Shown here: one piece after another, positions 4,016-48,501 of the stretch
How the letters are laid out: every line of letters starts with the position of its first letter
Numbering within the stretch: the stretch's first letter is position 1
Source of the DNA: an uncultured Erysipelotrichaceae bacterium
Lineage (GTDB): Bacteria; Bacillota_I; Bacilli_A; RF39; UBA660
Length of the DNA stretch: 64,000 bases
Assembly: GCA_902764545.1 (NCBI GenBank)
Contig: CACWWC010000009.1
Location: forward strand, 5,540-69,539
Direction of reading: 5' to 3'
Translations under genes and position numbers: made by a program
Notes under the pieces: model-generated
What the model was told of the DNA's origin: nothing
Database searches by the model: none
What the model saw: only the letters and a program-made list of their open reading frames with translations

Positions 4016-6829
4016 TTATTGTTCTTTTATATATTGATAATTATCATCTTCAAACAATTTTCTATATTTGCCATCACTACCCTTATAATATGTATGCATT
4101 TCTTCATCATCTATTTCATACAAGTATTCTAGTATATTATCAAACTCGTTATCATTATAAAGAGTGTGTAGCCAGTCTACAGTTTGAAATAGCTGTTCGT
4201 TATGAGTAAGCTTATCAAAATTACTTCCAGCTCGTGCTTTAGCTATGGCTTTAACAACGTTAGTTGCCCAACTACCACTTCTATGATTAATTGCATATAT
4301 AGCGCCTGGAACTTCTTTAATAATTTGTCTTTTGTGATTTGATTCCAGTTCTTTTTGTTTACCTTGTAATATTAAATAATCCTCATATCTCATTACGTAT
4401 GTTGCATTATTTGTTGCGGTTCCTTTTTTCTTTTTTCTATTTTTAAAAAACCGTTCTGCAATAATTATTGCATCTTTTTTAATGTCATCTCCTAAACACT
4501 TTTCCTGAACTACATAGAAGTTATAGTTATAAAATGGATGTGTTTCGCCAAATTCACTGTATAGAACTTTTTTTGGTCTCCTTGCTTGTAACGCATTTAA
4601 AAAATCAATTCTTGCCTCTGGATCAATTACAGTATCTATATTTTGGTTTGATGGGTTTGATCCGGTTGTATTATTAATAGATTTTAATTCTCTTTTTTCC
4701 TTGATATTAGGTAGGTTTAGATCACTTTTAATGTTTGGAATATCATCATCATCAATAGTTGTAAGACCAATTAAGTTTCTTCCTACTCTTCTTTCTAATT
4801 CTTTAAGGTTCCTATTTCTAATAGTATTATAAGTGCTTTGCTTAATAATTCCATTTCTAAATAATTGTTTAGCTTCTTTTATAAATATATTTCTATTCTC
4901 AAATATTTTAATAATATTTTCATCGGAAATATATCTCTTGTTTATATAATTCATAAGTTCTTCATCGGTTAAAGTTGAACTTAATATACATTTTTCTAAA
5001 TAATTTCTATCAACCTTTTGGTATTTAAATAACTTTTCAATTTCTGTAATATCAATTATATTTTTTGTAAAGAGATTATTAATTACACTCTCTCCACCTA
5101 AATCAGCAACTGTTTCAAGAGAAATCAAACCATTTATGTAGTAAAAATATAAATCTTCTTCATCTTCTATATAATCGATCATATTTTCTTCAGTTTTTCT
5201 ATCAATTTCATTATTCTCACAATTAATAGCTTTATATACTGTTATTAAACTACTCAATTTGTCAGATTCATTAGAAAAATGCTTTGCATCTAAATATAAA
5301 CTGTTTATATTAGATAATGACACTTCATCTAATGTAAGCTCTCTTTTATATTGTTTAAAAAAATCTATTGATAACTTTCCTTGGTTATATAAATTTAAAA
5401 TTTCAGTACTGTTAGTTTTCTTTAACCTATATAATTCAATGATTGCTTCTTCTAATTTAAATATATTGTTAGATTGATATTTTTCTATAGCCTTGTTAAG
5501 TTTATAATTAAGTTTTATTACTACATAAATAAAATTATTTAGACTATAGTTCATTATACTTTCTAATTCTTCATTGGTAAGATATAACATTTCAAAAATA
5601 TTATTTTCAATAAAATCAACATTAATTTTACCTGATAACAATGCGCTTTTTATATAGTTCAGTTCTCTTTTTGATATATATTTTTTATACGACAATCTTT
5701 TTATGAGTTTATCTAAATCCATATTTGTAAATGTATCATTACTATCTTTATCAATAAATTCACATTTGGGATTTTTTAGATGTTTTTTCAATACTGTTAA
5801 TAATTTTAAATATTTATTATATAATTCTTGTTTTTGATCACTATCTGCATTGAGTTCTAATAATTCTTCGCATCTTTTTGCACAAATCAAGATAAATTTA
5901 TCAAAATCTAAATAATATGAAAAGTAATATATTTGATCTGTTAGCTCTTCTATAAAAGATGATATAGGTATGCTTTTATCAATACTTAAGAGAATATCTA
6001 GGTAATCTAAATCTTTTAGTCCTGTTTTTTTTGCATCATAATTTCTAAGGCTTATATTTTTTTTGCCTCTTTCTCCTAATCTTAGTCTATCTTGAATACA
6101 AATTATAATATGTTTTCCAATTTCTTCATTTAAAAATGATTCACAGATATCATCATATGATAACAATGTTATTAGCTCATTAAGTCCTTGAAAGTCATCT
6201 AGTGCATTACCAATTTCTATTAAAGAATCTTTATTTTTCTTCCAAGGTATTTTTTTATTCCTAAAAAGAACATTTGAATCTGCAAATTCTATTTCTCCTG
6301 TCTTTATGTAGATATTAGTATCTGGGATTATTCCTTGTATGTTTTTTCCGACTTTTACTAGTGAATCAAGTAATTTCCCATCAACAGCTTCACTTTGTTT
6401 GGCGTTTTTCATAACATCAAGTGTCTCATTAATGTTAGCTTGATTATTTTTAATTAATTCCTTTGTAATATCATATATTTTCTGATTCCCTTTTTTTGCT
6501 GTTGCACATAGTTTGGCAGCTGATAAAAGATATCTATTTGGGCTTATTTTGTCAGAATTATCAATTGCAAATTGCAATTCAGCTTTTGTTAAATCACTTA
6601 ATTCACCACTATTTTGTATGGCATGTGTATATTCTCTAATTAACTCTATATTATTACTACAAATATCAATGATATTATAAGCGGTCATTGTTGGACAGAC
6701 AATATACTGATAAAAGCTATCTAGGTCTATTTTTTTTGTTTTTTGTTTTTTGTCTAAAGTAATAAATTCTACTGCAACACTAGTTAATGTATTAATAATA
6801 TCCTTCTTTTTATCCTTTTCTTTTTCCAA
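4016..6829 (-). CDS. large hypothetical protein (937 aa)
   Basis: Uninterrupted 2.8-kb ORF with no recognisable catalytic motif. The C-terminal ~200 aa (…INHRSGSWATNVVKAIAKARAGSNF…) looks like a separate domain. Confidence 0.55.
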   Translation of the reverse strand: MEKEKDKKKDIINTLTSVAVEFITLDKKQKTKKIDLDSFYQYIVCPTMTAYNIIDICSNNIELIREYTHAIQNSGELSDLTKAELQFAIDNSDKISPNRYLLSAAKLCATAKKGNQKIYDITKELIKNNQANINETLDVMKNAKQSEAVDGKLLDSLVKVGKNIQGIIPDTNIYIKTGEIEFADSNVLFRNKKIPWKKNKDSLIEIGNALDDFQGLNELITLLSYDDICESFLNEEIGKHIIICIQDRLRLGERGKKNISLRNYDAKKTGLKDLDYLDILLSIDKSIPISSFIEELTDQIYYFSYYLDFDKFILICAKRCEELLELNADSDQKQELYNKYLKLLTVLKKHLKNPKCEFIDKDSNDTFTNMDLDKLIKRLSYKKYISKRELNYIKSALLSGKINVDFIENNIFEMLYLTNEELESIMNYSLNNFIYVVIKLNYKLNKAIEKYQSNNIFKLEEAIIELYRLKKTNSTEILNLYNQGKLSIDFFKQYKRELTLDEVSLSNINSLYLDAKHFSNESDKLSSLITVYKAINCENNEIDRKTEENMIDYIEDEEDLYFYYINGLISLETVADLGGESVINNLFTKNIIDITEIEKLFKYQKVDRNYLEKCILSSTLTDEELMNYINKRYISDENIIKIFENRNIFIKEAKQLFRNGIIKQSTYNTIRNRNLKELERRVGRNLIGLTTIDDDDIPNIKSDLNLPNIKEKRELKSINNTTGSNPSNQNIDTVIDPEARIDFLNALQARRPKKVLYSEFGETHPFYNYNFYVVQEKCLGDDIKKDAIIIAERFFKNRKKKKGTATNNATYVMRYEDYLILQGKQKELESNHKRQIIKEVPGAIYAINHRSGSWATNVVKAIAKARAGSNFDKLTHNEQLFQTVDWLHTLYNDNEFDNILEYLYEIDDEEMHTYYKGSDGKYRKLFEDDNYQYIKEQ

Positions 6830-14624: not shown

Positions 14625-14780
14625 TCCAGTTTATTTTTAGTAATGATATATTTTTTGTTATAATATTGATTTTATTTTTTGTAATATATCTTTCGAATAA
14701 CTTATCCGTAGTAGCATCCGCCGAATTTTCGATTAACTACTAACCTCGTCAACTCTTAATAGTTCTGGCGCTTAACAATT
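14625..14780 (-). ncRNA. glmS ribozyme (GlcN6P-responsive self-cleaving riboswitch) in the glmS 5' UTR
   Basis: Minus-strand RNA AAGCGCCAGAACU…GACGAGG…UUAAUCGAAAAUUCGGCGGAUGC matches the conserved glmS ribozyme core. It lies directly upstream of glmS. The region is locally GC-richer. Confidence 0.75.
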
Positions 14781-14844
14781 ATTACAACCTTTCTTATAAT
14801 TGTTATATAATAATTATACATAAAATTAAAAAAGATGACAAATT

Positions 14845-37387: not shown

Positions 37388-37555
37388 CTTAAATCAATCC
37401 TTTCTCTCTATAATTATTTTTCCTATTATCTATTTAATGATACCAAATTTTATAATTTTTGTATATTATTTTTGAAATTTTTGTCGTAAAATTATACTTT
37501 TTGTTGAAGATTTGGATAATATACTCAATAATAATTGATTAAAGGAGTGGTAAGT

Positions 37556-37903
37556 ATGAAAAATAAAAATGCTTATGACAATAATAGAGATTTTATCAAC
37601 AAGATTTTTGATAGATCTGATAATCCGATTGAGGAATTAGAGAGGATTAATAGCGTTGTTCCAATATTTTTTATTGATGAGAATAACATAAACTATATTA
37701 ATGAAGGGTTAGATAAATATGGCTATGAAATCAATCCAAATTATATTTCTGATGTGAAATCACAGTGTCAAATGTATGGTTACCCTGCTTGTGGTGGTGG
37801 CGGTATAGGACATTCTTCTTGTTGTAGTTCACTAAATATTGATAAGCCGTTATTATTGGTAAAAAAGAATAATGGTGGTATTGAAAATGGAATTAGATAT
37901 TAA
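37556..37903 (+). CDS. Cys-rich small protein (115 aa); candidate precursor/partner of the adjacent radical SAM enzyme
   Basis: AAAGGAGTGG RBS. C-terminal QCQMYGYPACGGGGIGHSSCCSS cluster. The 3' end overlaps the radical SAM ORF by 32 nt in another frame. Confidence 0.45.
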   Translation: MKNKNAYDNNRDFINKIFDRSDNPIEELERINSVVPIFFIDENNINYINEGLDKYGYEINPNYISDVKSQCQMYGYPACGGGGIGHSSCCSSLNIDKPLLLVKKNNGGIENGIRY

Positions 37904-38363
37904 AGGAAAAAAATATAATATTAAACCCTATGCCTGTTCTCCCTGTGATGAATTTCCTTTTTATATAAATATTACTAATGTATGTAATGCAAAGTGTAGT
38001 TTTTGTTCTAACGCTTGTAATAAAGATTATGGTAAATTAGACTTAAATTACTTAGAGGAAATTTTAGAACAAATCAGCAATAATATAAGTAGATTCTCTA
38101 TTAGTGGTTGTGAAACACTATTATATCCAAATGATTTAGAAGATTTACTTAAATTATTACAAAAATATGATAGAAGAATAACTTTAAATACTAATGGTAG
38201 TTTTTTAAAAGAGAATGTTGAAATGCTAAATAAATATAATAATATTGAATCTATTCAGCTAAGTAGACATCATTACATCGATGAAAAAAATAATGAAGTA
38301 TTCAATATAGAGACTTTACCTTTTAGTGAATTGAATAAAAAAACTAACCTATTTCTTGATTAG
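37872..38363 (+). CDS. radical SAM protein, minimal activase-like (163 aa)
   Basis: CNAKCSFCSN is a CX3CX2C motif, followed by a SAM-binding-like ISGCETLL. No SPASM domain. Confidence 0.6.
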   Translation: MVVLKMELDIKGKKYNIKPYACSPCDEFPFYINITNVCNAKCSFCSNACNKDYGKLDLNYLEEILEQISNNISRFSISGCETLLYPNDLEDLLKLLQKYDRRITLNTNGSFLKENVEMLNKYNNIESIQLSRHHYIDEKNNEVFNIETLPFSELNKKTNLFLD

Positions 38364-40222: not shown

Positions 40223-40450
40223 CTATTATATTAAAGATATATTTTTTTACTATTCATATTTATCTGCGTATAATTAACTGCTTTTATCATTTATAATTTT
40301 ATTTAAATCTTTAATTACTTTATCTAATTTTTTTGACAATTATTATTGTCATTTATTACTAAATGTATTTTTATAAAATAAAAACTTACGAACTTTAATT
40401 AGTCCGTAAGTTGTCTTCAAATGGAGCGGTTGCCGTAGATATCTACAACT

Positions 40451-40848
40451 TTAAAATGATAATATAATCATATTTTCGTCTGGATCTAATATACCAAACT
40501 CAATATTTCCATAGTCTGTGTTTGTCCATTCCATAAAAAATTTTATTTTATTATTTAAAAGCGTGTTATATAAATTTAATAATTCATCTCTATCATCAAA
40601 TTTCAATTTAATTAAGTTACTATTTTTGTTTTCCTTGGATAACTAGGAATTTCTTTACAAACTACCGCATAATTTTCAAACATAATTGAATAATCATCTC
40701 TTCTCATTTTAACCAATGAAATCGGATCACCATCGGTTTCAATAACTTCAAATCCAAGATGTTTATTATAAAAATTAATAGACTTTTCTATATCACTAAC
40801 AGCAAATTCATTTATAATCTCTAAAAGTTTTATATTATTATCCTCCAA
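40451..40848 (-). pseudogene. VOC/glyoxalase-family protein disrupted by a frameshift
   Basis: N-half (40612-40848, …HLGFEVIETDG…) and C-half (40451-40611 in the +1 frame, …EFGILDPDENMIIL) together make a ~130-aa glyoxalase fold. One extra A in the A5 run (plus-strand T5 at 40623-40627) restores a single ORF. Confidence 0.6.
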
Positions 40849-41132
40849 AATTTTTTATATTTATTATATCATTTTTATTATTTTTAGTATATAAATTAGC
40901 AATATTTTGTTTATGACAAAATATTTAACCCCCCTAGGTATTTTGACACAAGTATCAAAATTACCTGTGGGGATTCTTTATTCAAAAAAAATCAGTCGTT
41001 TCAGACTGAAAGTTTATTTAAAGTTCGAAAAAGTTCGAACAGACTTCCCAATAGAGCGATAACTTTACTTATATTCGAAAAATCATACTCCCAAAGTTAT
41101 TTGATTAAATCAACTAAATAAATTATAGCACA

Positions 41133-42050
41133 TTATTTTACTATTATAAAGTCTTTTAAATTTATTTTTGTGGGTTTCATATTTTCTTCGTTATTTGAAT
41201 ATTTAAATCCTGACAAATTAGTTACATACTCTTTTGAATCATAATCGAATGAGAAAGCCATAAAGTCTATCAAGTGATAAGAATCATAATACATAAATAT
41301 ATCGTATGTATTATTAGGTAAGCATGGTATTTTGCATGCTACAATATTATCTGAAGTAACTAGCAATTGACACCCTTCAATATTATTTAAATTTGTTATT
41401 GTATAATGTTTAGAATTTGAAATTATATTAGAAAATTGTGCTAGTTTTATAATATCTTCTTTAGTTAATAATTCTTTTAAAATAGAAATATTATTAAATC
41501 TTTTTTTAGGGTCAAACTTTTTAATTATTTCTTCATAACAATCTTCAATATTTTCGTCTGCATAATATTTAAAGAAAAATGGTATATTTAACAATGTGTC
41601 CAATAATTGCTTTTCTACACCTTCACACATAAGTGTATTTAAAAAACAATCGTATAATTTATAAACATAATCTATTACTTTTCTATCTGACTCAGTTACC
41701 GCAAAGAATGCTTCATTATTCTTATATGTATTCATAAAGATTTCAAAGTTTATAATTTCATTTCTAGATTTATTTATCGTAATGTTTATTTTGTTATTTC
41801 TATCAAATTCTTTTTTTGAAATAAATAGAGATATATTTTTTGAAGAAATGTGAGTAACTATTCCAACTAGTAATGCATCTCCTAAAATATTAAATACTAA
41901 AAAATCCAAATCGTTAAATCCACTAGTAAAAAATAATAAACCATTATAAGACAGTAAGGCAATAATTATGAAGGTTATTATTAAGCCTAATAAAATAATT
42001 TTATATTTATAAGTTTTCAATTTTTCTGTTTTTATTTCAAATATCACCAT
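41133..42050 (-). CDS. hypothetical membrane-anchored protein (305 aa)
   Basis: Two N-terminal TM helices, no recognisable domain. Located in the island-like region. Confidence 0.45.
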   Translation of the reverse strand: MVIFEIKTEKLKTYKYKIILLGLIITFIIIALLSYNGLLFFTSGFNDLDFLVFNILGDALLVGIVTHISSKNISLFISKKEFDRNNKINITINKSRNEIINFEIFMNTYKNNEAFFAVTESDRKVIDYVYKLYDCFLNTLMCEGVEKQLLDTLLNIPFFFKYYADENIEDCYEEIIKKFDPKKRFNNISILKELLTKEDIIKLAQFSNIISNSKHYTITNLNNIEGCQLLVTSDNIVACKIPCLPNNTYDIFMYYDSYHLIDFMAFSFDYDSKEYVTNLSGFKYSNNEENMKPTKINLKDFIIVK

Positions 42051-42147
42051 TTCTAATTAATTTTTAAATATTATACCATTTATTATCTATTAAGTCTTTA
42101 TTATTAGGAAAATAATAGGAAATTTAATAGAAAAATGATAATGAAAT

Positions 42148-42286
42148 CAACAATAACTTTCTTACGACATTTTCTTACGACAAATAATCATATTACTAAA
42201 ACCTTTTACTGACAAAATATTAGGGAATTATAAGAAATTTTAACAACTTTCTTACGACATTTTCTTACGACATTTCTTACGACATG
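42148..42286 (+). repeat. five copies of the 12-mer TTTCTTACGACA in two tandem clusters (2 + 3)
   Basis: CAACTTTCTTACGACATTTTCTTACGACA appears at 42150-42182 and again at 42243-42275, followed by one extra unit. Lies upstream of the 42320 regulator gene. Confidence 0.7.
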
Positions 42287-42319
42287 ATATAATTAGATTA
42301 CAAGAATCAGAAGGTAAAA

Positions 42320-43624
42320 ATGATAGATGTAATTGAAGATGTAAGAAATGAATTTAAAGTTAAATTAACAGATAAGTTTGAAGAAGAAGTTATATCATTT
42401 TTGAATACTAATGGTGGTAATATCTACATTGGTGTTAATGATAAAGGTGATATTGTTGGAATAAATGGTAATATTGATTTATTACAAAGGACTATTAAGG
42501 ATAGAATAAAAGATAATATAATGCCATCAACATTAGGATTATATGATGTTGTTGTATTGGAAGAAAACAATAAAAAATATATTAAAATAATTATTGCTCG
42601 TGGTAGTGATGATCCATATTACATTAAAGGTATGGGAATGACACTAGATAGTTGCTTTATTAGAGTTGGTAGTTCAATACAAAGTATGCCTTATGATATG
42701 ATTAATAATAGAGTTAATAAAAGAACTAGGACATCATTAAGGAATATAGTATCCCCTAAACAAGATTTAACTTTTAGTCAATTAAAAATATATTATGAAG
42801 AAAAAGGTTTTAATATTAATAATAATTTTTTAAAGCAATTAGACTTATATACTGATGATGGTAAATATAATTATAATGCTTATTTACTTGCTGACAATAA
42901 TACAATATCTATTAGATTTGGAAAATATGAAGGAACAAATGCTGTTGATTTAATAGAAAATGAAGATTTTGGTAATTGTTCTATTGTTAAAGCAACAAAG
43001 AATATTTTAAATAAGATAGAAATAGAAAATAGGATATTTACAAAAATAGAATACCCTGAAAGAAAAGAAATTAAAATGTATGATTTTGCCGCAGTAAGAG
43101 AAGCAGTTGTTAATGCAATTGTACATAATGATTGGTCTAACGAATATGCTCCAAAATTTGAAATGTTTAGTGATAAATTAGTAATATCATCAAATGGTGG
43201 TATTCAACCATCTACTACAAAAGAAGAATTTTTAGAGGGATATTCATTACCTAAAAATAAAGAACTAATGAAAGTATTTAATGATTTAGATTTAGTTGAA
43301 CAAATGGGTACAGGTATAATAAGAATACTTCAAAGTTATGATAAAAAATCATTTGAATTTTTTCCTAATTTTATTAGAGTTACATTTCCATTTAATAAAG
43401 ATAAATTTAGAGAAGAAGCAAAAGAAATTACCGAATTAACTGAAACTCAAAAATCTATTATTAATTTAATGTTAGATTCACCAACTATTACACAAGAGGT
43501 GTTGTCAAAACTATTAGGTGTTAATATTAGAACTATTCAAAGAAATATAAAAACACTTATTGAAATGGGATTAATTGAAAGAACTGGTGCTACTAAAAAA
43601 GGTGAATGGATAGTAAAAAAATAA
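42320..43624 (+). CDS. AlbA_2/Schlafen-like putative ATP-dependent DNA-binding regulator with a C-terminal winged HTH
   Basis: N-terminal …EEVISFLNTNGGNIYIGVNDKGDIVGI is the AlbA_2 (divergent AAA-4) signature. A HATPase_c_4-like middle region. The C-terminal TQEVLSKLLGVNIRTIQRNIKTLIEMGLIER is a wHTH. Confidence 0.6.
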   Translation: MIDVIEDVRNEFKVKLTDKFEEEVISFLNTNGGNIYIGVNDKGDIVGINGNIDLLQRTIKDRIKDNIMPSTLGLYDVVVLEENNKKYIKIIIARGSDDPYYIKGMGMTLDSCFIRVGSSIQSMPYDMINNRVNKRTRTSLRNIVSPKQDLTFSQLKIYYEEKGFNINNNFLKQLDLYTDDGKYNYNAYLLADNNTISIRFGKYEGTNAVDLIENEDFGNCSIVKATKNILNKIEIENRIFTKIEYPERKEIKMYDFAAVREAVVNAIVHNDWSNEYAPKFEMFSDKLVISSNGGIQPSTTKEEFLEGYSLPKNKELMKVFNDLDLVEQMGTGIIRILQSYDKKSFEFFPNFIRVTFPFNKDKFREEAKEITELTETQKSIINLMLDSPTITQEVLSKLLGVNIRTIQRNIKTLIEMGLIERTGATKKGEWIVKK

Positions 43625-43701
43625 ACCATTAATATGTTAATTTGTAGAATTATTATAGGATTCATGCTAAAATAAAATAGAAGTAGGAGGAAAAAAATAA
43701 T

Positions 43702-44571
43702 ATGGATAATGATGAAAATATGGATTTAATGCTTAGTGATGAAGAATTAGAAAAGTTAGGTATTTCTTTTCACGAGCCAACACCTGAAGAAATAGAAGAA
43801 AAAAGGATAAATAGAGCAAAAGAATTAGAAAGTAAGGGCTTTTTACCGGAAAATGCTGAACTTAATGAAACCATGTCTAGTCCACAAGAATTAGTTGAAA
43901 CAAATCCGAGAAGATTTATTATTGAGGAATGTATTCCTGCATGTCAAGAATTATGGTCAAAAAATATTTATACTTTTATGGTTAGTGATCATTTAAATGA
44001 GGGGCAATGCTGGATAGAAATAATAGTTGATGGACTTTCAGATGAAAATAAGGAAGTTTTCATGAATTTATCTGGTGATGATGTGATAAAATTTTCATAT
44101 CATAGAGGAACTATTAATTTTGGAGTTAAACTTGTTGGAAAGGAAGGACAGTCAAGATTACTAGAACTAGCACAGCAGTTTCAAATGCAAGATGTTCCTA
44201 TAAATCAATCATATATCTCAATGCAGGATTTTCTATTAGAATATTGTGGTTGCTATGATGAAATACCTAATCCAAATTATATAGAAATGAAACCAGCTTG
44301 GGAAATGGAATTGTCGGTAGAACAGATAGCTGATTATATGCAAAAATATGATGAGTGGCAAGAATCACCAGCAAGCAAAAAAACTTTTAAACAATTTAAT
44401 CCAAATAAACTTACAAAATCTGTAAATGAAGTAGCAGAAGAAAAAGGAATGATTATTGACGGCGATAGAGTTTATTTAAGCAAATTTCATTATAAAAAGC
44501 ATCAAAACTATTTGAATTCATTAGAAAATGTGACAAGTTTGGAGGAAAAAACTGGTCATTCAAAAAAATAA
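43702..44571 (+). CDS. acidic hypothetical protein (289 aa)
   Basis: GGAGG RBS, terminator hairpin downstream at 44584-44620. Confidence 0.5.
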   Translation: MDNDENMDLMLSDEELEKLGISFHEPTPEEIEEKRINRAKELESKGFLPENAELNETMSSPQELVETNPRRFIIEECIPACQELWSKNIYTFMVSDHLNEGQCWIEIIVDGLSDENKEVFMNLSGDDVIKFSYHRGTINFGVKLVGKEGQSRLLELAQQFQMQDVPINQSYISMQDFLLEYCGCYDEIPNPNYIEMKPAWEMELSVEQIADYMQKYDEWQESPASKKTFKQFNPNKLTKSVNEVAEEKGMIIDGDRVYLSKFHYKKHQNYLNSLENVTSLEEKTGHSKK

Positions 44572-44583
44572 TTTAGTTATTAA

Positions 44584-44620
44584 AAATGCTAGATTAAAGT
44601 GTTCTAGCATTTTCTTTTTG
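44584..44620 (+). terminator. rho-independent terminator (AATGCTAGA…TCTAGCATT plus T-run)
   Basis: 9-bp inverted repeat and a T-rich tail after the 289-aa gene. Confidence 0.6.
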
Positions 44621-44905
44621 GATATCTTTATCAAAATTATTAAGATTATTTTGTATGTCTTTGACTCTTTTAGTTATTTCTTTACAATACTTATCATATT
44701 TATAAAGTTCTTTAATTTCATTAATTTCTGCAAGTATTTAAGTTCTTTACTCTGTCTTTATACAAATAAAAGATTTTCTCCTTTCTATAAAGAAAACATT
44801 ATAAAAGTTTTTTCTTTATATTATGTATTACCTTGTCAAGCTAGGTTAGGTTTTATACAATAAAAAACTTACGAACCACTACAGATTCGTAAGATATTTT
44901 TAAAT

Positions 44906-45015
44906 GGAGCGACATTTTGTCATATATACGCAAAATATCACGTTATATAAGGCAATCAAGATTCTCAATTGCTAAATAAAATATAACATATATTATGGAA
45001 AAAGAAAAGAATAGA
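44906..45015 (+). repeat. ~110-bp direct repeat, copy 1
   Basis: About 85% identical to 45371-45480 (GGAGCGACATTTTGTCATATATACGCAAAATATCACGTTA…TCAATTGCTAAAT…AAAAGAAAAG). Contains a TTGCTA-16-TATTAT promoter-like element. Confidence 0.7.
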
Positions 45016-45127
45016 AAATTCATGTGTTCGATTGATTTATACTTGGAATAGTGCTATATTGCAATTAGGAACATTTAGTTGTTGAGTGTCTACCTCTAAT
45101 CTTCTAGAAGAAAGGAGGTTTGATAAG

Positions 45128-45220
45128 ATGAAAACTAAGACTTTTATTATAAGAGTTTTAAAACTCATTTCTATCATTTTATTCCTTCTTATCATTATGA
45201 TAGTAGTAATAAAAAAATGA
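45128..45220 (+). CDS. 30-aa hydrophobic peptide, type I toxin-like (Fst/Hok-like small membrane peptide)
   Basis: Not in the ORF track. AGGAGG RBS 9 nt before the ATG. Peptide MKTKTFIIRVLKLISIILFLLIIMIVVIKK has a single TM and a basic C-terminus. Flanked by the two repeat copies. Confidence 0.45.
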   Translation: MKTKTFIIRVLKLISIILFLLIIMIVVIKK

Positions 45221-45370
45221 CACTCATTCATAGAATAAGTGTCTAAACACATTGGTGGGTAGACATTCAACTCGCAAAAACTGAATGTTCCCATTTTTAT
45301 TTTATGCAAGATTTCTTGCTAGATACATAATAACATAAAAAGGAACTTTTTTCAAGTTCCTTTAATTTTT

Positions 45371-45480
45371 CATGGAGCGACATTTTGTCATATATACGCA
45401 AAATATCACGTTACATAAGGCAATCGACAAACTCAATTGCTAAATGAAATATAACATACATTTTGACAAAAGAAAAGCTC
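45371..45480 (+). repeat. ~110-bp direct repeat, copy 2
   Basis: See copy 1. Preceded by a hairpin (AAAGGAACTT…AAGTTCCTTT) and followed by another (AAGTGGGA…TCCCACTT). Confidence 0.7.
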
Positions 45481-45542
45481 CTAAATTAAAAGTGGGAATT
45501 TGTACTCCCACTTAGCTCGTAATATCTTAATCTTACGATTAT

Positions 45543-45866
45543 TTATATTCTAACTATAAAGAACACAAATCCAATTGTTCCAACAACCATAAATATGATT
45601 CCTACTAATGCAACTTTCTTTCTTCTATCTATTTCATTTTGTTCTTCTTTTGTAATATTCTTTATTGGATATTTTCTTCTATGTAATAGATAAAGAATAA
45701 TTCCCTCTGAACTTTTACCACTTGTTGCAAGTAATCCCATTAATTTTGGATGTTTAATTCCTCTTGCCTTTGCATCTATAACAGTTATTTTATAAATTTG
45801 ATATATTGTTGCAACTACTCCAATAAGATATATCGCTATAAATATTGCTAATAAAATATAATTCAT
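45543..45866 (-). CDS. small membrane protein (107 aa, TM helices at both termini)
   Basis: ORF track. Immediately downstream of the XRE regulator gene. Confidence 0.5.
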   Translation of the reverse strand: MNYILLAIFIAIYLIGVVATIYQIYKITVIDAKARGIKHPKLMGLLATSGKSSEGIILYLLHRRKYPIKNITKEEQNEIDRRKKVALVGIIFMVVGTIGFVFFIVRI

Positions 45867-45874
45867 AATTCCTC

Positions 45875-46282
45875 CTATAATTTTTTAATGATTTGATAAA
45901 ACAAATAAGAAAAACTAATAATAGAAATAGTAAATACTATTACTATAATTGAGATGCTTTCATTTACAGTTATTCCTACTATTACAAATAGAATAATAAC
46001 TAAAATATTTAATAAAATTGCATAAAGTAATTTCTTATTACTTTTTACGACATCTGTGCTATCCTTTAAATATTCCAAAACTTTATTGTCATAACTTAGT
46101 AAGTCATCTAAAGAAATATTAAAGTATTTGCTTATTTTAACTAAAGCATCAATGTCAGGATAAAATTTTCCATTTTCCCAATTAGATATTGTTTGTCTAG
46201 TGACATTTAGTTTTTCTGCTAATTCTTCTTGTGAAAGTTTTGCATTTTTTCTCATTTCAATTATTTTGTTACCTAAATCCAT
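45875..46282 (-). CDS. XRE-family HTH transcriptional regulator with a C-terminal TM segment
   Basis: LSQEELAEKLNVTRQTISNWENG is a Cro/C1-type HTH, followed by a hydrophobic C-terminal helix. Confidence 0.75.
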   Translation of the reverse strand: MDLGNKIIEMRKNAKLSQEELAEKLNVTRQTISNWENGKFYPDIDALVKISKYFNISLDDLLSYDNKVLEYLKDSTDVVKSNKKLLYAILLNILVIILFVIVGITVNESISIIVIVFTISIISFSYLFYQIIKKL

Positions 46283-46442
46283 AATCTTTCTCCTTTCACA
46301 AAAAACTATACATTTTTTATTATTATTTTACTATCAAATATGTTTTACATTTAAAAAATTATAGTAATTATATATAAATTATACCATAAATTTCTACTAT
46401 TGATTTATATCGGAAGTTTACTATTTTATGAGATATTCAAGC

Positions 46443-46469
46443 ATAAAAAAATTAGTCTCACGACTAATT
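46443..46469 (-). terminator. rho-independent terminator after tRNA-Gly
   Basis: ATTAGTC-GTGA-GACTAAT hairpin and T7 run on the minus strand, directly 3' of the tRNA. Confidence 0.6.
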
Positions 46470-46480
46470 GTATTTCTAAA

Positions 46481-46554
46481 TGGAGCGGATGATGGGAATC
46501 GAACCCACGTAGTCAGCTTGGAAGGCTGAGGTTCTACCATTAAACTACATCCGC
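46481..46554 (-). tRNA. tRNA-Gly (anticodon UCC), CCA encoded
   Basis: Minus strand GCGGATGTAGTTTAATGGTAGAACCTCAGCCTTCCAAGCTGACTACGTGGGTTCGATTCCCATCATCCGCTCCA. Cloverleaf with a CUUCCAA anticodon loop. Confidence 0.9.
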
Positions 46555-47887: not shown

Positions 47888-48193
47888 TTAATAATTAACT
47901 GTTCCTGTTCCGTTTTCATCTGTTGCTGACATTTTTTCAATTACAGTAGAAATATTACGTACTTGATTTTCTACTGTTGTGATAAAACTAGGAATTTTTT
48001 CTGCTAACTCATCCCATGATTGTCTAAATTCAGTTGCGGCAACACCATCCCATGCTGTTCCATTTGTTCCAACAGATTCTTTTATTTCTTTATCAATATC
48101 TTGCAAGCTAGTTCTTGTTTCTTCACTTGATGTCTTTATATCTGCTAATATTTCTTTTATTTGTTCAAAATTTAACTCATTTGCTAAAGCCAT
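47888..48193 (-). CDS. WXG100-family protein (EsxA/YukE-like)
   Basis: 101 aa. Central TAWDGVAATEFRQSWDELAEKIPSF aligns with B. subtilis YukE WEGASSEAFADQYEQLKPSF. Confidence 0.75.
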   Translation of the reverse strand: MALANELNFEQIKEILADIKTSSEETRTSLQDIDKEIKESVGTNGTAWDGVAATEFRQSWDELAEKIPSFITTVENQVRNISTVIEKMSATDENGTGTVNY

Positions 48194-48207
48194 TTTATCA
48201 TCTCCTT

Positions 48208-48501
48208 CTAATTAAACGAATTTTTAACTGCTGTTGAAGTTTCATCTAATTCCAACATTTTAGAATTTAATTTATTACAGAAATTTGTCATATATTCTCT
48301 TGCATCAAAAAGTGTTTGTCTATTTTCGTTATATTTTGAAACTAATGCTTCATAGATTCCAACCTCTGATGTTTTAAGAGCTTCAGATAATTCCTTTATT
48401 TTTGCATCTAATGTGTTTATTGCATCAGAATATTTTGCAGTTTGTCTTACTGAGTTATCTAATGTAGCTTGCATTTCTGCTAATGAAAATTTTAATGCCA
48501 T
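48208..48501 (-). CDS. small helical WXG100-like protein (97 aa, no W-x-G)
   Basis: Same size, position and helical-hairpin character as Esx partner proteins. Confidence 0.45.
   Translation of the reverse strand: MALKFSLAEMQATLDNSVRQTAKYSDAINTLDAKIKELSEALKTSEVGIYEALVSKYNENRQTLFDAREYMTNFCNKLNSKMLELDETSTAVKNSFN

Follow-up and report, generated by a model that had tools for sequence, protein, structure and literature searches.

We analyzed a 64-kb stretch of DNA (the window) in which two direct repeats lie close to genes for an XRE-type regulator, a small membrane protein and tRNA-Gly, the neighbors named in a preliminary description of this DNA. The repeats span 44895-45009 and 45363-45477. 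Alignment showed that they are 115 nt long, 89% identical without gaps and 468 nt apart, and that they bracket a 30-aa hydrophobic open reading frame (ORF), as had been described. A 41-nt block identical in both copies occurs at these 2 sites in the window, compared to 0 matches in 100 shuffles. We did not find a further copy in the remaining 58 kb of the window, and an nhmmer profile of the repeat recovered no diverged copies in the window or in the loci compared with it (labeled L001, L005 and so on; 250 kb in total, searched with the window added). The preliminary description read this locus as a type I toxin-antitoxin (TA)-like module. Our analysis suggests that the repeats are probably cassette-boundary elements of an array behind the tRNA-Gly gene, with TA-like cargo between them.

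Read along the minus strand from 46554 to 40385, the locus begins with tRNA-Gly(UCC) and a core, CGCTCCA. Behind it lie a right arm (R01), the XRE and 107-aa genes, the long form of the repeat (copy 2, a type A left arm) and the next core. Core 2 is followed by a terminator, the toxin module, the short type A arm (copy 1) and core 3. Behind core 3 lie a terminator, genes for proteins of 289, 434 (Schlafen/AlbA_2) and 305 aa, a degenerate core, a glyoxalase-like gene, a type C arm, and a final core with its terminator. The array is adjoined by ispH, by an ORF of 128 aa and by the tRNA gene. The cores at 46481, 45373, 44905 and 40422 and the degenerate core at 41052 all lie on one strand (Table 1); the junctions at 41052 and 40422 are 4-4.5 kb beyond the region of the preliminary description. 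This layout suggests that 40385-46554 is a tandem array of integrase-less cassettes behind tRNA-Gly. Cassette 2 (44905-45372), which holds the toxin module, is exactly one 468-bp repeat period.

Table 1. Coordinates of tRNA, cores, arms and cargo in the array, listed in minus-strand order
Feature	Position	Strand	Details
tRNA-Gly(UCC)	46481..46554	-	ARAGORN; Rfam 71.7 bits
Core 1, CGCTCCA, last 7 nt of the tRNA	46487->46481	-	sequence
Right arm R01, cassette 1	46409..46480	-	tRNA trailer, terminator hairpin TTAGTCGTGAGACTAA with T-run, conserved extension ending CTTCCGAT
XRE-type HTH protein with C-terminal membrane segment, cassette 1 cargo	45875-46282	-	Pfam HTH_3, 9e-20
107-aa membrane protein, cassette 1 cargo	45543-45866	-	ORF
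Repeat copy 2 (type A left arm, long form)	45380..45539	-	starts ATCGTAAGATTAAGATATT; 98-nt unit (~105 nt with core) common to copy 1
Terminator hairpin of the 107-aa gene	45513->45490	-	inside the long arm of repeat copy 2
Core 2, CGCTCCA, junction of cassette 1 and toxin cassette	45373..45379	-	L042/L046 homology ends exactly at 45373
Terminator hairpin with T-runs, right arm of toxin cassette	45339..45363	both	terminator scoring
Candidate antitoxin RNA unit	45210..45355	-	promoter-like TTGAAA-17-(TG)TATTAT 45355-45327; RNA of ~110 nt 45320->45210; terminator 45243->45219 with T-run
Putative toxin transcription unit	45032..45305	+	promoter-like TTGATT-17-(TG)TATATT 45032-45060; terminator 45257-45292 with T-run
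30-aa hydrophobic peptide ORF, toxin candidate	45128..45220	+	product MKTKTFIIRVLKLISIILFLLIIMIVVIKK; ATG 45128, stop ends 45220
Repeat copy 1 (type A left arm, short form)	44912..45009	-	variant ...TTCCATAATATATG... yields plus-strand TATTAT
Core 3, CGCTCCA	44905..44911	-	in L023 the same arm and core precede a different right arm
Terminator hairpin with T-run after core 3, right arm of next segment	44868..44893	-	terminator scoring
Degenerate core CGCTCTA behind the 305-aa gene	41052..41058	-	followed by a right arm like L028 position 2024
Last recognizable junction	40385..40450	-	type C arm AGTTGTAGATATCTACGGCAAC (40450->40429), core CGCTCCA (40428->40422), spacer, terminator hairpin 40410->40385 with T-run

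The smaller sequence features reported around the repeats were largely borne out. On the plus strand, a hairpin and T-run precede each copy (44868-44893 and 45339-45363), as described; both score as intrinsic terminators, the second on both strands. The GCAAT...ATTGC stem inside the repeats exists. A promoter-like TTGCTA-16-TATTAT was found where it had been placed, at 44969-44996, but the role of toxin promoter proposed for it is not supported: L038 and L039 lack the element and have an intact toxin gene and leader. Promoter-like matches were not enriched in this AT-rich region (20, compared to 16.8 ± 3.9 in shuffles). The 90-aa antisense ORF, dismissed earlier as implausible, is present as a call at 45037-45309 (minus strand) and is almost certainly spurious.

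We searched species-representative genomes with a 20-mer from the repeat and metagenome contigs with a shifted 20-mer. The first search returned 12 true stretches in 11 genomes plus 1 chance match; all 11 are low-GC metagenome-assembled genomes from rumen or gut, labeled Bacilli, Erysipelotrichaceae or “Bacillales”. The second matched 24 metagenome contigs. Together with the window these gave 43 repeat copies, answering the suggestion in the preliminary description that more copies be sought. The obligatory part of type A, ~105 nt, was present in every copy and ends ...GACAAAATGT-CGCTCCA, whereas the long form, as in copy 2, also carries an optional module, ATCG(G/T)AAGATTAAGATATTACGAGCTAA, and a terminator hairpin. 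Mean column identity of the 43 copies was 95% over the last 72 nt, with unrelated flanks. The copies adjoin unrelated genes in many species, which speaks against the proposal that the repeats are parts or regulators of a toxin module.

Several other identities for the repeat were tried and rejected. Rfam 15, at gathering and E-value thresholds, returned no family for the repeat or the toxin region (best score 24.5 bits against a gathering score of 60, a chance-level match). A tRNA pseudogene was rejected: neither ARAGORN, which called only the true tRNA and none in the repeat, nor inspection found a cloverleaf, and CGCTCCA is all that the repeat has in common with the tRNA. The copy differences are not adenine-specific and no reverse transcriptase was found, unlike in the template and variable repeats of a diversity-generating retroelement. 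Ends of a group II intron or of an IS200/IS605-type element were set aside, as there were no RNA-domain matches and no transposase, and the hairpins are dissimilar. Neither the 661-bp region nor the 20-mer matched anything in collections of phage, plasmid and viral sequences, which thus gave no sign of a phage attP. A coding role for a 23-aa ORF open in both copies (MERHFVIYTQNITLYKAIKILNC) was likewise rejected, because it has no Shine-Dalgarno sequence and is 58 aa long in L006. This ORF (MERHFVIYTQNITL(Y/H)KAI..LNC; plus strand, 44904-44975 and 45372-45443) is also open in other loci, again with no Shine-Dalgarno sequence, and is probably non-coding.

The minus-strand end of every repeat copy is CGCTCCA, identical to the last 7 nt of the neighboring tRNA-Gly(UCC). 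Conservation stops at this CCA in 42 of the 43 copies; beyond it lie a variable spacer of 8-14 nt and then a hairpin and T-run of many different sequences. tRNA-Gly(UCC) was found 1.1-2.1 kb upstream of the repeat on the same strand in the window, L013, L019/L021, L028 and L035, and L006 has tRNA-Gly(GCC) upstream at a similar distance. The only tRNA genes in the compared loci are for tRNA-Gly. CGCTCCA occurs 58 times in the 250 kb of loci plus the window, compared to ~2.5 occurrences expected from base composition. Beyond the type A and tRNA sites, 7 of the 10 remaining sites have the same order of left arm, core, spacer and terminator, with left arms (types B/D, C and E; type C also in L009) that are unrelated and have only the core in common. 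A hairpin and T-run follow within 60 nt of the core at 53 of 56 CGCTCCA sites, in at least 30 right-arm sequence classes.

We observed that left and right arms are shuffled around this core. R01 stands behind the tRNA 4 times, behind type A 5 times and behind type B/D once; right arms R06 and R08 likewise sit behind different left arms, as does the toxin arm, which follows type A, type B and type D arms (L017 and L001 among these). The toxin cassette ends that flank CGCTCCA are ...GACAAAATGT in the left arm and TGAAAAATTAAAGG in the right arm. Homology blocks start at position 0 or +1 of the core 43 times, and just 0.7% of all positions are no more than 12 nt away from a core edge; most other block starts are left ends of the repeat element. 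In L040, which is 98% identical to the window, a 42-nt deletion (45420..45379) removes hairpin 2 of repeat copy 2. One of its endpoints falls at C|GCTCCA, so that GCTCCA is probably the core common to all sites.

Whole cassettes were also found in different contexts. A stretch of 1630 nt, 94% identical and running exactly from core to next core, is common to L001, where it lies behind a type B arm, and L035, where it lies behind the tRNA. The XRE cassette of the window, core to core (46486..45373, 1114 nt), is 99.4% identical in L042/L046 with both flanks different. L042/L046 are among the contigs 98-100% identical to the window and contain nothing else of it. Samples containing the window locus include ERZ1024293, ERZ27280013 and the STEW19 rumen sets. 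In L044, a type E arm takes the place of the tRNA at the same point. The ispH protein of the window is 57% identical to that of L035, whereas the non-coding R01 arm is ~92% identical, which points to horizontal spread of the arms. The shuffled arms and the core-to-core cassettes in new contexts suggest that the CGCTCCA boundaries behave as recombination junctions.

The cargo of cassette 2 is the SD-preceded 30-aa ORF of the preliminary description, which we found with its GGAGG Shine-Dalgarno (SD) sequence at 45114-45118, 10 nt upstream. An identical peptide is encoded in four other contigs, L023, L038 and L039 among them, in different contexts, and L017 carries a decayed copy. Variation is confined to conservative or synonymous changes: both nucleotide changes in the L039 gene are synonymous, and two database variants, P0121/P0122, show R>K, M>L, V>I, L>F and S>A. 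The peptide had no Pfam match (E ≤ 10) and no NCBIfam match (E ≤ 1), and PADLOC and NCBIfam searches of the cargo proteins returned nothing informative. IS21 (rve and IstB; L038 175-2174) lies directly upstream of the L038 copy.

The promoter-like element assigned to the putative toxin unit is conserved in L023, L038 and L039. The putative mRNA (45067-45305) has a predicted fold of -75.4 kcal/mol (z = -8.5), in which the SD is paired with ACCTC (45092-45096) or CUUCU of the leader, and 45068-45094 pairs with 45258-45291 in a 5'-3' interaction. This part of the leader is complementary to both arms of the gene's own 3' terminator hairpin (14 bp and 8 bp). The candidate antisense unit (fold -32.4 kcal/mol, z = -5.0) is convergent with the toxin unit and overlaps its 3' untranslated region (UTR) and last codons, and its terminator abuts the stop codon. 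The leader resembles part of the candidate antisense RNA; leader and antitoxin would therefore compete for the same 3' UTR site. The antisense unit is conserved in L017. In L001 (6145-6335) it occurs without a toxin ORF and may be an orphan antitoxin.

Of the TA-like module in the preliminary description, the peptide gene has thus kept its place: it recurs, has a putative mRNA with a strong predicted fold and faces a convergent candidate antisense unit, and looks like a type I toxin gene. The repeats have not kept theirs. The 30-aa gene is likely real, as is its antisense partner, though both are rarely annotated, and we infer transcription of both RNAs and toxicity of the peptide. In the predicted arrangement, the mRNA fold would bury the ribosome-binding site, and the antisense RNA of ~110 nt would overlap the 3' end of the toxin mRNA, leading to degradation or to a locked inactive fold.

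Taken as cassette boundaries, the repeats fit a simple scheme. Each cassette, on the minus strand, would consist of the core (C)GCTCCA, a right arm (trailer and intrinsic terminator), cargo and a left arm, up to the next core. The type A left arm would mark the distal end of small integrase-less cassettes stacked directly behind tRNA-Gly(UCC), and cassettes would be gained, lost and reshuffled via site-specific recombination at the core. We infer a recombinase that acts in trans, because no cassette carries one. A cassette inserted beside the tRNA would give the tRNA gene, through its right arm, a proper 3' flank; the simplest explanation for right arms that start with a trailer and terminator is that insertion on the tRNA side must restore this flank. 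The cargo seen comprises surface proteins, restriction enzymes, regulators and the TA-like module. The toxin module would then be simply what lies between two cassette boundaries, not linked to the repeats, and it plausibly stabilizes its cassette or the array.

A broader proposal can be made only tentatively, and we hold it with clearly less confidence than the boundary role itself. The arrays may represent an integron-like gene-capture platform, not described so far, in uncultured rumen and gut Bacilli. Adaptor arms would make arbitrary genes into cassettes, a recombinase encoded elsewhere would insert them at the last six bases of tRNA-Gly(UCC), and each cassette would supply a new trailer and terminator. 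The type A arm might also be transcribed, as a tRNA-acceptor-like minihelix RNA ending UCCA.

Several observations weigh against boundaries recombined at a single core with TA-like cargo between them. Neither the window nor the surroundings of any array yielded a recombinase among the best 25 Pfam families listed per scan, and no cognate integrase-bearing element was found for the tRNA-Gly core. Circular junctions, an empty site and precise loss of the toxin cassette were not found either. Islands that target tRNA genes usually have longer tRNA-derived repeats than this core of 6-7 nt. Cargo also swaps where the long arm starts on the left, at a 19-bp end (L052, L018), and at the CTTCCGAT end of R01 (L047), where an IS110-family transposase (205-1374) abuts that end upstream of the XRE gene. 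These second swap boundaries imply that the system is perhaps more complex than one site and one enzyme, and more than one recombination activity may act on the junction module. In the type A arm, an extended -10 box is conserved and the minus strand folds well as RNA (z = -6.7); the cassette scheme needs neither. In addition, L023 has an intact toxin gene without the antisense promoter region.

Pfam scans of 43 window and 91 locus proteins yielded a single integrase, that of L018, among the best 25 families listed per scan, so that a weak recombinase match may have been hidden, and phmmer with this protein against all ORFs found nothing else. The L018 tyrosine integrase heads a 4.4-kb island, with a DpnII-like endonuclease and a surface protein as further cargo, flanked by direct repeats ATCG(T/G)AAGATTAAGATATT at 1381-1399 and 5799-5817. 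This 19-bp repeat corresponds to the start of the long type A arm (its first 19 nt), not to the GCTCCA core, and is a second att-like site inside the junction module. We considered the L018 integrase family as the GCTCCA recombinase and rejected it: its homologues lie in mobilizable elements (XRE, AAA_25, Mob_Pre relaxase, integrase) with no core, 19-bp site or tRNA nearby. One such element occupies L054 1-8119, which comes from the sample that also yielded L040 (ERZ1024293), and carries Fic besides XRE, AAA_25, Mob_Pre relaxase and integrase. The integrases of L054 and L018 are 70% identical, and neither a GCTCCA core nor a tRNA lies near the L054 element.

The repeats could have other explanations. 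The preliminary description saw them as parts of a TA locus encoding cis- or trans-acting small RNAs that control the peptide gene. In both the window and L023, a short-form copy does lie directly upstream of the toxin gene, with the copy 1 variant TTCCATAATATATG that creates a TATTAT box facing it. However, 39 of the 43 copies have no adjoining toxin gene. The toxin gene and an intact leader are also present in L038, which lacks the repeat there, and in L039, where just a fragment of the repeat accompanies them. The duplex predicted between repeat and toxin mRNA was no better than in shuffles, being matched or beaten by 120 of 200 for copy 1 and by 37 of 200 for copy 2, and the repeat stems lack compensatory changes. 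The distribution of repeat and toxin already contradicts this explanation, to which we give hardly any weight. A repeat that is itself a small RNA gene deserves somewhat more, though we consider it unlikely. Such an RNA would run ~70 nt from the extended -10 box and form two hairpins. The second, a helix of 11 bp with U-CCA behind it, would resemble a tRNA acceptor/T-arm minihelix. Maturation would proceed as at a tRNA 3' end, before the RNA's own terminator, and the RNA would act as a tRNA-Gly mimic or as a regulator. Its minus-strand fold of -35 kcal/mol (z = -6.7, compared to -22.9 kcal/mol on the other strand), the TGnTATATT kept in nearly all copies, and a 3' end identical to that of tRNA-Gly(UCC) would suit such a gene, as would conservation that ends exactly at CCA and gives way to variable trailers and covarying terminators. 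On the other hand, the repeat has no Rfam family and no tRNA call. The 23 distinct sequences contain no compensatory changes and 13 cells that break pairs, a weak test in that our search pattern held the 3' strand constant. Conservation is equally high in the promoter region and in the “RNA”, a sign of young DNA and not of RNA constraint, and the 42-nt deletion in L040, a locus otherwise 98% identical, has taken out hairpin 2. The left arms of types B/D, C and E share the core only. A small RNA gene also cannot explain why unrelated left and right arms are joined precisely at the core. It is possible that the type A arm is a small RNA ending UCCA in addition to a cassette boundary.

Equally improbable, in our assessment, is insertion of the whole ~250-bp module (long left arm, core and R01) as a non-autonomous element of the miniature inverted-repeat transposable element (MITE) type, in which case the cassettes would be whatever lies between insertions. 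The module ends form an imperfect ~25-bp inverted repeat (ATCGTAAGATTAAGATATTACGAG at the long-arm start, CTCGTAAAATAGTAATATTACGAT at the R01 end), full modules with sharp ends occur in L010, L015, L017, L018 and L020, cargo differs on either side of unchanged modules (L052), and the L047 transposase abuts one module end. We observed no target-site duplications at the ends of full modules, however, and the copies are clustered behind tRNA-Gly rather than dispersed, with none in the remaining 58 kb of the window. For most copies the end is the core and not the inverted repeat, and most lack one or both ends. Insertion of whole modules cannot account for joins, at the core, of R01 to the tRNA or to arms of types B/D, C and E. 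Boundaries recombined at the core account for these joins, and remain the explanation we favor.

Tandem accretion of genomic islands at tRNA genes has been described, as have CIMEs (cis-mobilizable elements), which have kept att sites and lost the integrase (review PMC5704250; Pavlovic et al. 2004 cited there). The array resembles these in its intact tRNA at one end, tRNA 3'-end repeats at every boundary and tandem integrase-less segments, and newer insertions are tRNA-proximal (L044 compared to the window). It differs in that the segments are very small (0.47-2 kb) and the repeat is only 6-7 nt. Moreover, the same arms flank many unrelated cargos, like a standard “adaptor” and not like decayed ends of large elements, the tRNA receives a terminator with each cassette, and no cognate integrase-bearing element was found. 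Tycheposons of Prochlorococcus are several kb long, carry their own tyrosine recombinase and often replication genes, and have partial-tRNA repeats (bioRxiv 10.1101/2020.12.28.424599). As proposed for our arrays, cargo elements integrate at tRNA genes (a few, for tycheposons), push older ones outward and leave partial tRNA repeats; our arrays have a 6-7-nt core instead of partial tRNAs and no recombinase of their own.

Integrons share with the array the rows of small, mostly single-gene cassettes without a recombinase, the hairpin-forming recombination element at the cassette end and reshuffling at a short core. Toxin-antitoxin cassettes occur in chromosomal integron arrays. Unlike integrons, the array has no intI/attI next to it and is anchored at a tRNA gene. 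Its arms are not attC-like and share the core (C)GCTCCA in place of R''/R' GTTRRRY or RYYYAAC cores, and its cassettes start with a terminator and so need their own promoters. To our knowledge, integrons are essentially unknown in low-GC Bacilli.

Type I TA loci with 3'-overlapping antisense RNAs include txpA/RatA and bsrG/SR4 of Bacillus subtilis and fst RNA I/RNA II of Enterococcus, and many type I toxins have a buried ribosome-binding site (PMC4147584). The peptide module has in common with them a small hydrophobic peptide with charged ends, predicted transcripts that converge and share a 3' overlap, a predicted fold that sequesters the ribosome-binding site and includes long-range 5'-3' pairing, and a location in mobile DNA. 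Inhibition by folding back is known for the hok mRNA. The module differs in that its peptide matches no Pfam or NCBIfam toxin family and in that its antisense RNA, promoter and toxicity are predictions. No profile of a known type I family (Fst/Ldr, TxpA/BsrG, Hok, Ibs, TisB and others) matched the 30-aa peptide. The direct repeats of fst lie inside both RNAs and mediate their pairing, whereas here the repeats lie outside the module and are unrelated to it. From all four kinds of system, the array differs in its 6-7-nt core, in its very small cassettes with standard adaptor arms, in terminators by which the tRNA flank would be repaired and in that no integrase was found locally.

If the cassette explanation is true, these arrays would be a compact, sequence-defined gene-exchange system in poorly known gut and rumen bacteria, with an easily searchable signature (arm, GCTCCA, terminator). 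They would show where genes for surface proteins, defense and toxins turn over in small AT-rich genomes, offer a defined substrate for a recombinase hunt, and be a natural example of cassettes that repair their target tRNA gene. With the peptide comes a candidate for a new family of type I toxins, whose predicted mRNA architecture is textbook-like.

The commonest cassette cargo encodes secreted or anchored proteins with the N terminus MKK..LLPILLF.MFIPFVVNAETCDT and, in many cases, a C-terminal membrane anchor, ...ITYIIFKRKK. We observed this family in L005, L009, L010, L014, L015, L019, L020, L027, L028 and L033; some members have InlB B-repeat-like domains, which suggests surface variation. 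The glyoxalase/bleomycin-resistance-like gene in the last cassette of the window (40450-40840, minus strand) is apparently split by an in-frame stop, and the call in related contigs is only 78 aa long.

Elsewhere in the window, two adjacent genes of ~100 aa (47888-48501, minus strand), one matching WXG100 in related contigs, adjoin ORFs of 439 and 446 aa without a Pfam match; this region may be an ESX/type VII-like cluster. Two overlapping ORFs of 122 and 163 aa at 37535-38363 (plus strand), the second matching Radical_SAM, may be one frameshifted gene. A glmS ribozyme (14635-14783, minus strand; Rfam 71.4 bits) lies upstream of a glmS-like gene.

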